A stretch of DNA of 64,000 nt, taken from contig CAZTRA010000001.1 of the NCBI GenBank assembly GCA_964616075.1, positions 49,599 to 113,598 of the forward strand, written 5' to 3'. Of this stretch, positions 1,752-3,075 are shown one piece after another (the first letter of the stretch is position 1; each line of letters starts with the position of its first letter). Under the pieces are notes generated by a model. That model worked only from the letters and a program-made list of their open reading frames with translations. It was not told where the DNA came from and ran no database searches. This DNA comes from an uncultured Candidatus Saccharibacteria bacterium. Lineage in GTDB: Bacteria > Patescibacteriota > Minisyncoccia > Phycocordibacterales > DSPV01. The translations under genes were made by a program, and so were the position numbers.

Positions 1752-1871
1752 AATAAAAGCTCCCGCACGCTTTATATACTATACATGTCGCAAAAGATAT
1801 ATTGTGCGACGTTAAGATATATGTTTATTCCCGCCAAGTGTGAATTCCCTCTTCATTCCATTCATTGCCCA

Positions 1872-1912
1872 CAAAAAAGAAAAGGGCTATCCACGATGTG
1901 CTGTGGATAGCC
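1872..1912 (-). terminator. rho-independent terminator downstream of the high-GC gene (minus strand)
   Basis: 11-bp perfect stem gggctatccac/gtggatagccc preceded on plus strand by an A-run (T-run on minus). Confidence 0.5.
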
Positions 1913-1982
1913 CCAATTTTGACCGCCTGCGGCGGAATTCAAGGGATCAAAAGACCCAGGAATTCAAGACCTCAGGGATCGA

Positions 1983-2870
1983 TTACTGCGGGAGGAAGGC
2001 CGACGAGGAACCGCACTCGCCGTAGGTATGGTTTAACCAGCAGGCGTCGAACTTCACCAGGTCGGCGCCGAAGCTGAAGAGCGGCGTGGCCGCGAAGTTG
2101 CCAACGGCCTCCGGAGCGTATTCGTCACCGGCGCAGTTGATGTAGAGATCGTCGCAGTGCATCAGACGCTCAGGGTGAGTGAGCAACATGATCCCAACCG
2201 CGAAGGCGCCGAGTCCGAACTCGTTGGACACGAAGACCTCGCGAGCACGGCGAACGGAGCGTCCCCGATGACGGATGCCGAACTGGGCAGCCACCACGAG
2301 GATGTCGTGATCCTTCTGCTCGTCGCCGAGCGTCTGGAACATCTTCTCCGCCCGAGTCGACTGCTTGAGCCAATCGGGGCCGAGTTCGCCTTCGCACCTG
2401 TTCTTGAACTTGCCGTTGCGCGTCTCACTGATCTTCGCGAGCACCTTCTCCACGGCTCCACCGTAGGTCAAGGCGATCTTTTGCCACTTCGGGATGGCGA
2501 ACCACCCTTCGGCATTCGTCGGGACCGGCCGTTCGGCCAGCTTCTCGTCGGCGAAACCGACGCTCGGGAACAGTTGCCGCAGGATGTTCGTCTGCTCGGT
2601 GATGCCCTTCGGCTTGTAACCGGACAGGTATCTGTAGGTGGATTGCACTTCCTCGTTCTTGAACTTGTCGGAGACCGACAGGTCCTTCAGCGAGGTGATG
2701 GCGGCCGTGCGGATGGCCTCGGCGAATTCGTCGCCGTGTTCGATGACGCGTTGTGCGCCGAATTTGTCGAGGCCGAGCTCAGCGAGAACCTTCTCAATGG
2801 TGTCGGAACCGAACCGGTTGATCTGCTTGACCTGACCGGTCGTTGCTGCTGTCTGAGTAATCGCGTTCAT
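1983..2870 (-). CDS. hypothetical protein encoded on a ~60 % GC segment (foreign-composition insert)
   Basis: 295-aa ORF with diverse composition; RBS ggaga 7 nt upstream of ATG; terminator downstream; plus-strand ORF 2157..2897 is an Arg/Leu/Ala-rich antisense artefact. Confidence 0.6.
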   Translation of the reverse strand: MNAITQTAATTGQVKQINRFGSDTIEKVLAELGLDKFGAQRVIEHGDEFAEAIRTAAITSLKDLSVSDKFKNEEVQSTYRYLSGYKPKGITEQTNILRQLFPSVGFADEKLAERPVPTNAEGWFAIPKWQKIALTYGGAVEKVLAKISETRNGKFKNRCEGELGPDWLKQSTRAEKMFQTLGDEQKDHDILVVAAQFGIRHRGRSVRRAREVFVSNEFGLGAFAVGIMLLTHPERLMHCDDLYINCAGDEYAPEAVGNFAATPLFSFGADLVKFDACWLNHTYGECGSSSAFLPQ

Positions 2871-3075
2871 TGCGTTATCTCCTTTTGGATTTCCTGAACC
2901 GCTCAGGTAACGGATTGCCTCACCGCTTCCTTAATTCAAAGAGCGTTCTTTAGCAGTAGAACAAACTCATAGGGACTTGTCAAGTAGTAGGTTTCGTGCC
3001 TAATGCCCTAATTACAATCTGGAATTCCATCAATTTTGCGTGCTCCTTTCTCGTTGTTTTTTTGAATCGTCCCTA

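Follow-up and report, generated by a model that had tools for sequence, protein, structure and literature searches.

A gene in an AT-rich bacterial genome

Does a gene that departs sharply in base composition from everything around it have to come from elsewhere? The question is raised by a 64,000-nucleotide (nt) stretch of contig CAZTRA010000001.1 (positions 49,599 to 113,598 of the forward strand; assembly GCA_964616075.1, labelled as an uncultured Candidatus Saccharibacteria bacterium), hereafter the window. Near its left end, on the minus strand (1983-2870), lies an open reading frame (ORF) of 295 amino acids (aa) with a GC content of 0.61 (0.59, 0.42 and 0.82 at the three codon positions). 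Over 200-nt segments, GC ranges from 0.57 to 0.645 across 1901-2900 and from 0.31 to 0.48 in the flanks on both sides; the 1-kb bin 2001-3000 reaches 0.587, against 0.31-0.49 in the remaining 63 bins. Among the 51 non-overlapping ORFs of at least 150 aa in the window, the GC content at third codon positions (GC3) of this one is 7 standard deviations above that of the other 50 (0.373 +/- 0.064), and its codon choice (Lys AAG 18/1, Phe TTC 18/0, Ile ATC 13/2) is the opposite of the host's. An earlier reading of this DNA, made from the sequence alone, correctly described the GC-rich segment between low-GC flanks and its single minus-strand ORF with GC3-rich codons, and took it for either a very recent single-gene insert from a high-GC donor or an assembly artefact. 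Our analysis leads to a different interpretation. With a probability of about 85%, window positions 1873-3009 are a self-contained unit, made up of a promoter region with a 5' untranslated region (UTR), the coding sequence (CDS), a hairpin module after the stop codon and a terminator, which is a target of a diversity-generating retroelement (DGR) of the type found in Patescibacteria.

A family of retroelement targets

The window protein has 3,269 homologs, of which the best 120 are full-length and 65-84% identical to it; at 50% identity, the family forms ~1,960 clusters. All named homologs belong to Patescibacteria/Parcubacteria lineages, and the family appears to be restricted to Patescibacteria. 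The sequence-only reading had held that a conserved match within the same lineage would argue against horizontal gene transfer (HGT), and this is essentially what is found, with more than 3,000 homologs. No matches to the window protein were detected in Pfam, NCBIfam, PHROGs, PADLOC or the sequences of the Protein Data Bank (PDB), with either the single sequence or a profile, so the earlier statement that it has no recognizable motif holds at the sequence level. A look-up of the exact window protein gave no record. The homology check that had been proposed for this protein thus leaves the known sequence families silent but shows that it is no orphan: it belongs to a family of DGR targets.

The first two homologs viewed in their contigs both adjoin a bAvd gene (PF22296), and one also adjoins a reverse transcriptase (RT) gene (RVT_1, PF00078). 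On self-comparison, the last ~131 nt of the homologous genes, the variable region (VR), have a second copy beside Avd, 86-88% identical, the template repeat (TR). About 80 loci from species-representative genomes (the L-numbers below) were analyzed uniformly. A full cassette of TR, Avd and RT lies within ~2.5 kb of the target in 36 of them (36 of the ~60 that are evaluable), and 6 contain partial cassettes; 19 lack a cassette although 3.5 kb or more of flanking sequence is available on either side (robust orphans), and 20 are non-evaluable owing to contig ends. Within complete cassettes, the mismatches between TR and VR fall at TR adenines (18/18 and 20/20 for the VRs of L001 and L005 against their adjacent TRs, and 24/24, 29/29 and 26/26), and non-adenine changes in the seven nearest linked VR/TR pairs range from 0/98 to 1/99. 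Because the mismatches between TR and gene occur almost exclusively at TR adenines, which is the diagnostic signature of DGRs, this is a DGR variable-protein family. In metagenome clusters at or above 90% identity, it is mostly the last 50 residues that vary: one cluster has 33 variable columns among these 50, compared with 25 of 248 elsewhere, and 13 of its 13 columns with at least four residues are in this C-terminal part. Diversification is therefore ongoing in nature.

The cassette of most linked loci follows the scheme TR> <Avd RT>, in which Avd has the opposite orientation to TR and RT; the TR lies ~50-60 nt past the Avd stop codon on the opposite strand (e.g., L001 7962-9544; L003 11297-11826). 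The block is located either downstream of the target, in the same orientation, or upstream of it, inverted; the TR is found ~370-430 nt after the target stop codon or ~450-600 nt before the start codon, and each TR is trailed by its own hairpin and T-run. Among the partial cassettes, L003 and L030 retain TR and Avd without RT, and L024 retains the TR only. A DUF2726 gene occupies the expected position of the RT in L003, where 5 of the 16 TR/VR mismatches are non-adenine; Avd is partial in L030, and 18 of the 26 mismatches in L024 are at adenines. These three loci appear to form a series of retroelement decay beside intact targets, with non-adenine mismatches accumulating.

Several further observations pertain to the family as a whole. 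Two tandem paralogous targets precede one TR-Avd-RT cassette in L065 (10001-12106), L072 (291-2365) and L015, and two called proteins, P0121 (478 aa, with two matched stretches) and P0008 (373 aa), resemble tandem or fused target copies. In L001, L005 and L006, the DGR lies between GpA-type terminase and SU10-type portal/capsid genes, together with two interleaved restriction-modification (R-M) systems, a setting that looks like a prophage or a defence island. Some family contigs (L008, L020, L035, L052, L057, L059, L079 and L030) belong to metagenome-assembled genomes (MAGs) labelled Gammaproteobacteria, Loktanella, Flavobacteriales or Humimicrobiaceae, and many family-bearing 'TPA_asm' MAGs are labelled Saccharibacteria; the flank GC of 0.34-0.46 suggests that several of these labels result from mis-binning or mislabelling.

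The variable region of the window copy

The 3' end of the window gene aligns column by column with active VRs. Compared with the TR of L001, 16 of 28 TR-adenine sites and 9 of 104 other sites are changed (p = 1.5e-7); across the TRs of the seven nearest linked relatives, all from genomes other than that of the window, the respective proportions are 57-67% and 9-25% (Fisher p from 1.5e-7 to 4e-4). These adenine-biased differences imply that, at some time in the past, a DGR wrote the VR of the window gene. The VR terminates in ...CCTCCCGCAGTAA. In 11 of 11 aligned VR/TR pairs from linked loci, a final CCGCAG or TCGCAG in the VR is matched by CCGAAG or TCGAAG in the TR; the CCGCAG-type motif is retained in most linked loci and in 13 of the 19 robust orphans. 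This difference is of the type that separates the initiation of mutagenic homing (IMH) site from its TR counterpart (IMH*) and, by analogy with BPP-1, may have a role in telling donor from recipient.

The window copy stands without a cassette. A blastn search of the 64 kb found no TR-like repeat, and an nhmmer search with a TR profile found none beyond the VR itself, its sole match (E 6e-17). Neither Avd nor RT was detected in the 64 kb by tblastn or by profile hidden Markov models based on 39 Avd and 31 RT sequences (best E values of 0.39 for Avd and 0.88 for RT). The window covers both positions at which the TR is located in relatives, and the sequence there is unrelated. Since none of the three components was found in 64 kb, the window copy is cassette-less locally and, consequently, is either served in trans by a DGR located elsewhere or carries a frozen VR. 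Action in trans is feasible because a reconstituted DGR edits reporter targets placed around the chromosome, most efficiently when these are co-directional with replication, and homing has been tied to replication (PMC12875486). GC skew is positive (+0.16) on the strand that bears the window gene and most other genes of the window, and the gene is co-directional with the inferred replication; family-wide, such co-orientation is non-significant (39/64 loci). In common with remote targets described previously (PMC8144416, PMC12875486), the window copy has its VR and recognition elements away from RT and TR and is on the G-rich strand; unlike those targets, it has not been connected to any DGR in a search extending to 64 kb. 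As remarked in one survey, surveys that demand an RT beside the VR miss remote copies (PMC8144416).

If the window gene is diversified in the same manner as its relatives, a TR of ~131 nt, beside Avd and RT genes, would be copied with adenine-specific errors, as is shown in the homologs, and the cDNA would overwrite the last ~131 nt of the target. Some 15 codons would be rewritten, in the C-terminal strands of a predicted C-type-lectin-like ligand-binding domain. Donor and recipient would be told apart, probably, by analogy with BPP-1, through the one base that differs at the end (VR CCGCAG, TR CCGAAG) and the structured DNA after the stop codon. The cognate TR, if there is any, would match the window VR at non-adenine positions, have adenines at the variable columns and end in ...CCTCCCGAAG or ...GGTTCCTCGTCGGCCTTCCTCCCGAAG.

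Table 1. Features of the putative DGR target unit in the window
Feature	Position	Strand	Remarks
CDS of the 295-aa DGR variable (target) protein	1983..2870	-	Residues 1-74 predicted helical, ~75-295 predicted C-type-lectin-like; GC 0.61, GC3 0.82
5'UTR and conserved upstream (promoter-region) block	2871..3009	-	Ribosome-binding site GGAGA at 2878-2882; right part of the conserved unit
Variable region (VR)	1985..2116	-	Last ~131 nt of the CDS; predicted C-terminal beta-strands; aligns with the TRs of L001, L005, L008 and L059
IMH-like invariant 3' end of the VR with TAA stop codon	1983..2012	-	GGTTCCTCGTCGGCCTTCCTCCCGCAG; CCGCAG, VR-type end
Phased TTGA/CTTG array	1932..1982	-	Directly after the stop codon; spacing 7-9 nt
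Rod-like hairpin in the array	1932..1968	-	H1 GAATTC/GAATTC (1960, 1935); H2 GGGTC/GA.TCC; apex TTTT
GC mini-hairpin	1923..1935	-	CCGCC-GCA-GGCGG, read from the sequence; putative function
Intrinsic-terminator-like hairpin and T-run	1873..1914	-	GGGGCTATCCAC...GTGGATAGCCC; stem 1914->1883; terminator scan; left end of the DNA homology with L001 and L005

A conserved module after the stop codon

The window protein is 82% identical to the L001 and L005 proteins, and DNA homology with these loci covers window positions 1873-2921 (87.7% identity) and 2934-3009. The first block runs through the start codon into the upstream DNA up to 2921; the second block, entirely upstream, is 79-83% identical to L001 and L005. 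The ribosome-binding site proposed earlier (ggaga-N7-ATG) is correct, and no sigma-70 consensus promoter was detected in the upstream region.

Conservation in the ~110 nt (112 nt) that follow the stop codon exceeds that of the protein, with 78-84% identity to the equivalent regions of L041, L059 and L060, the proteins of which are 56-60%, and 4-fold degenerate sites 48-52%, identical to those of the window gene. This module opens with the phased TTGA/CTTG array. TTGA occurs, on average, 4.0 times per 75 nt after the stop codon in linked loci compared with 0.48 in control windows, and the array is lost in 10 of 41 orphans versus 1 of 39 linked loci (p = 0.007). The array sequences fold more stably than their dinucleotide shuffles (mean z -2.47; 33 of 58 sequences below -2) into hairpins with a common architecture, H1-internal loop-H2. 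In relatives, H1 consists of GAACTC...GAGTTC in place of the two GAATTC of the window. In a 14-sequence alignment, 91.8% of the cells are paired in register versus 24-52% when slid, and three pairs of the rod-like hairpin are changed on both sides, including U-A<->C-G and A-U<->G-C; 0 of 500 shuffles reach this score.

The sequence-only reading had pointed to a cluster of four GAATTC sites at the borders and to a short direct repeat, ggaattcaag. The cluster is real, although the first three of the sites had been placed a few bases off and one inside the gene had been missed: the exact starts are 1842, 1935, 1960, 2724 (inside the gene) and 3022, so that 5 of the 12 sites in the window lie within 1.2 kb. 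The repeat is real as well (1934-1943 and 1959-1968), and its copies are the two arms of the conserved hairpin. The outer sites, GAATTCC at 1842-1848 and 3022-3028, lie 26 and 13 nt beyond the ends of the unit shared with L001 and L005; this could be a coincidence or a trace of the unit's insertion, and the idea that the two sites are target-site duplications was set aside.

The array is followed by the GC mini-hairpin, at the position of which other subfamilies have GC stems with GAA or GAAA loops, and by the terminator-like hairpin, which had been noticed before and proved genuine, T-run included. The stem of the latter carries CTATCCACA (1902-1910). The stem motif, (C/T)TATCCACA or YTATYCAC, is found at +60 to +100 nt after the stop codon in 32 of 79 loci, compared with 0.008 occurrences per 160 nt elsewhere; besides the window, the loci with the motif at this distance include L007, L013, L016, L020, L021, L025, L030, L054, L059 and L080. 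In sequence, the motif resembles the DnaA-box consensus, TTATCCACA. An Rfam scan of 1700-3200 produced only sub-threshold noise.

The TRs lack the post-stop module. By analogy with BPP-1, for which a hairpin or cruciform downstream of the VR is required, the module may be part of target recognition. The canonical DGR hairpin has a 7-10-bp GC-rich stem and a GRNA loop (PMC3240598), and that of BPP-1, no more than 24 bp from the VR, combines an 8-bp GC stem with a GAAA loop. In its place, the window has an AT-richer rod of ~37-52 nt, the GC mini-hairpin, which is comparable to the canonical form, and a third, sequence-conserved hairpin.

GC-richness is confined to the coding sequence

High GC is a property of the family. 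In 79 of 79 loci, the gene is GC-richer than its flanks (mean difference, 0.17); host flank GC spans 0.26-0.54, and no host or contig among these loci has a GC content equal to or above that of its target gene. The mean GC of the target CDS is 0.594 (GC3 0.74), and that of the TR copy is 0.547. At the same loci, Avd has 0.39 (GC3 0.43), RT 0.39 (0.41) and the far flanks 0.41; the spacer of 250-330 nt between terminator and TR has 0.428, the 130 nt upstream 0.413 and the downstream module 0.437. The GC-richness is therefore a family-wide trait limited to the CDS and not a scar of transfer, and at synonymous sites the GC3 excess is maintained although every host is AT-biased. Previously, atypical GC in DGRs has been taken as evidence of transfer (Wu et al. 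2018; PMC5758913). With respect to the window gene, the earlier description as a single-gene insert is upheld insofar as the unit is a discrete accessory element (see below), but not its characterization as un-ameliorated DNA of a high-GC donor.

Several explanations of this pattern were rejected. Transfer or biased conversion of a whole segment is incompatible with UTRs, spacer and cassette genes being at host GC, because such a segment would not halt at the start and stop codons. Avoidance of adenine alone is rejected given that adenine and thymine are equally depleted at third codon positions upstream of the VR; third-position adenine drops to 0.01-0.03 inside the VR only. Elevated GC is not a general property of DGRs either: across five unrelated DGRs of phages other than BPP-1, for which the adenine-specific TR/VR pairs were verified, target GC3 is close to RT GC3 (0.38/0.36, 0.11/0.05, 0.65/0.63, 0.53/0.53 and 0.71/0.73).

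On internal branches of the family tree, changes at 4-fold sites are balanced, with 126 from strong (G or C) to weak (A or T) bases and 118 in the opposite direction (parsimony counts for all branches minus those for terminal branches). In 356 of 406 genome pairs, 4-fold sites of the target keep 17-32% signal where the adjacent RT is saturated (3-8%); the divergence of the target correlates only weakly with that of the RT (rho 0.25). The simplest reading is that AT-biased mutation is opposed by a GC-favouring fixation bias that acts on the coding sequence. We propose, tentatively and with the odds against it, that the CDS-only high GC3 (~0.74 on average and 0.82 here) is held by a force on synonymous sites and that, together with it, the family's own recognition module (TTGA rod, GC mini-hairpin and DnaA-box-like stem) possibly enables diversification of cassette-less copies in trans. 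If true, this would be an unrecognized requirement of this DGR type. Candidates include protection of the invariant scaffold against adenine mutagenesis outside its target, survival of the mRNA and a compositional need of replication-coupled cDNA integration.

Alternative explanations

Several points weigh against the interpretation offered here. The assignment of the window gene to DGR targets rests on homology and on the VR signature, given that the cognate TR, Avd and RT were not found; the search was confined to 64 kb, and the window ends 1,982 nt past the stop codon. Drift since a loss of the DGR could be the source of the differences from the nearest TRs at 9 of 104 non-adenine sites. 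The putative role of the post-stop hairpins in target recognition comes by analogy; the covariation sample is small, with 12 distinct, phylogenetically related sequences and few independent events, and RNAalifold finds no consensus structure in a broad MAFFT alignment of the downstream region, where the length classes are out of register. Finally, changes at 4-fold sites on terminal branches are skewed, 361 strong-to-weak versus 156 weak-to-strong, which would also fit a recent spill-over from a GC-rich source, with the proviso that parsimony is biased at skewed composition.

The alternative that survives best, to which we give somewhat less than even odds, is that the window gene is a frozen relic: its lineage would have lost the DGR, and the gene would function, or decay, with a fixed VR. 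The empty 64 kb and the non-adenine differences speak for this, and relatives show what the process may look like, with the decay series of L003, L030 and L024 and with orphans that lack the array or the IMH-like end. Other features of the window copy speak against it: the ORF is intact, the IMH-type end, the TTGA array and both hairpins are kept at 84-85% identity to active loci, GC3 is as high (0.82) as in linked copies, and the gene is oriented co-directionally with the inferred replication, as is favoured for retrohoming.

Much less probable is a recent acquisition of the single gene from a high-GC donor, still un-ameliorated. The slot that the unit occupies is indeed variable. L085, a distant syntenic relative (proteins 44-57% identical), has the same gene order as the window, namely, M23 peptidase, small membrane protein, slot, SLT-like protein, L27, L9, S41 protease and CorA, and its slot (9608-10282, plus strand) contains an unrelated 224-aa ORF without a Pfam match; this intergenic site, with the small membrane protein on one side and the SLT-like gene on the other, seems a hotspot of accessory genes. 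A metagenome scan with the neighbouring M23 peptidase retrieved distant relatives alone (at most 44% identity). Furthermore, the target is 52-68% identical between genomes, a level that most of their remaining shared genes do not reach; the values for L069 are 31% for L9, 38% for the S41 protease and 64% for the target. Because the slot differs in L085 and the target outruns the shared genes in identity, the unit behaves as an accessory and probably exchangeable element within Patescibacteria, and transfer within this group is plausible, although the composition is no evidence for it. A donor of high GC is also suggested by the excess of strong-to-weak changes on terminal branches, the phage-like genes around the nearest relatives, L001 and L005, and the weak correlation between target and RT divergence. 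Such a donor would have to account for a GC excess that recurs in 79 of 79 loci, with the highest host flank GC, 0.54, always under that of the gene, for named homologs that are all Patescibacteria, for host-like GC in the non-coding parts of the conserved unit and the adjacent cassette, and for internal branches that are compositionally balanced. Phage carriage as the main vehicle was set aside, with the family present in just 4 of 2.9 million viral contigs, a figure that also counts against the donor. A GC-rich reservoir outside the sample, with frequent spill-over, is a possible, if less simple, reading than the fixation bias, in view of the weak correlation between target and RT divergence and the bias of parsimony at skewed composition.

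If the gene were native and very highly expressed, translational selection would account for the extreme and consistent codon choice noted above and for synonymous sites of the target evolving more slowly than those of the neighbouring RT. We consider it quite unlikely: the window genes for ribosomal proteins L27 and L9 have GC3 of only 0.31 and 0.29, residue conservation and GC3 are uncorrelated across the family (rho 0.02, p 0.79), and the codon usage of the gene is the inverse of that of the genome. The chimera envisaged earlier, a high-GC fragment joined into a low-GC contig in assembly or binning, has the abrupt switch in composition as its only point and is safely dismissed, given that the unit shared with L001 and L005 crosses both composition boundaries unbroken, that its promoter, ribosome-binding site, CDS, hairpin module and terminator are coherent, and that the same island between AT-rich flanks recurs in dozens of independent assemblies from different projects.

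Predicted fold and relationship to known systems

The AlphaFold (AF2) model of residues 75-295 was obtained from a 112-sequence alignment headed by these residues, for which homologs were searched a second time, starting from a divergent family member; it has a pLDDT of 91.9 and a pTM of 0.92. In fold comparison, this model gives figures of 6.4 with PvdO, 6.3 with OvoA and 5.7 with SUMF2, and matches many C-type-lectin-like domains; the list includes three solved DGR variable proteins, TvpA (5.6), Mtd (4.5) and TaqVP (4.4). A Foldseek search against the PDB is non-significant, with C-type-lectin chains recurring among its weak matches. On moderate support, we read residues ~75-295 as a putative, divergent domain of the C-type-lectin kind, the C-terminal strands of which carry the VR. 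Residues 1-74 are predicted to be helical and, as read from the sequence, have no signal peptide or hydrophobic segment.

Cellular DGRs of Patescibacteria (the candidate phyla radiation, CPR) were reportedly first described by Paul et al. in 2017. A cellular DGR clade restricted to Patescibacteria, with targets that lack transmembrane or recognizable domains, has been delineated since (PMC8144416; 'DGR clade 2' of Roux et al. 2021). The family described here shares with this clade the host group, the cellular rather than viral location, a target without a signal peptide, transmembrane segment or Pfam domain and, in the homologs, Avd, RT and TR adjoining a target with a C-terminal VR; differences are that the window copy is devoid of a cassette and that the cassettes of the family have the layout TR> <Avd RT>, on either side of the target. 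The resemblance to the BPP-1 system (Mtd/Avd/TR/Brt) extends to adenine-specific transfer from TR to VR, the location of the VR at the 3' end of a gene with a C-type-lectin fold (predicted, for the window), slightly differing IMH/IMH* ends and a hairpin downstream of the VR (PMC3240598). The gene order is different, and Mtd is the tip of a phage tail fibre, whereas the window protein is cellular and lacks an export signal. TvpA of Treponema denticola (2y3c) and TaqVP of Thermus aquaticus (5vf4) are only 8-9% identical to the window protein in sequence, and the window protein has no match to the FGE-sulfatase family of Pfam; TvpA is a lipoprotein, in contrast to the window protein with its N-terminal helical region and no lipobox or signal peptide. 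The DGR literature that was searched yielded no mention of the CDS-restricted elevation of GC, of the TTGA rod hairpin or of the YTATCCACA hairpin.

Other features of the window

Opposite most of the target gene, a 246-aa antisense ORF (2157-2897, plus strand) was rejected as a gene. It is in the exact complement frame of the target and is a by-product of the target's avoidance of TTA, CTA and TCA codons. The second-highest GC3 in the window (0.615) belongs to a 194-aa hydrophobic ORF (13842-14426, plus strand) that resembles a multi-pass membrane protein and has no Pfam match. An AT-rich stretch at ~48000-58000 (GC 0.31-0.37) encodes a type III R-M pair (Res, 52907-55588; Mod, 55594-57378) and a 938-aa ORF without a Pfam match (50087-52903), with a tRNA-Asn at 57991-58066, and may be a genomic island. 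Methylase homologs are present within 10 kb of the target in at least 9 other loci.

Implications

The window gene belongs among the DGR targets of Patescibacteria, a known type of system, and is a copy without a cassette. A composition island of the sort that is usually flagged as HGT or misassembly is, in this case, the signature of a gene family, and island callers based on GC will systematically mislabel these patescibacterial genes. About a third of the evaluable family members, the window copy included, lack an adjacent retroelement and mostly keep the recipient signals; with these cassette-less copies, DGR networks that act in trans in tiny genomes become a possibility that can be tested. 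Two features are potentially new. The distinctive post-stop hairpin module offers concrete, mutable elements for the study of target recognition in this DGR clade, and the CDS-restricted elevation of GC3 against the AT bias of the hosts could expose a new constraint on retrohoming or on the expression of hypervariable proteins.

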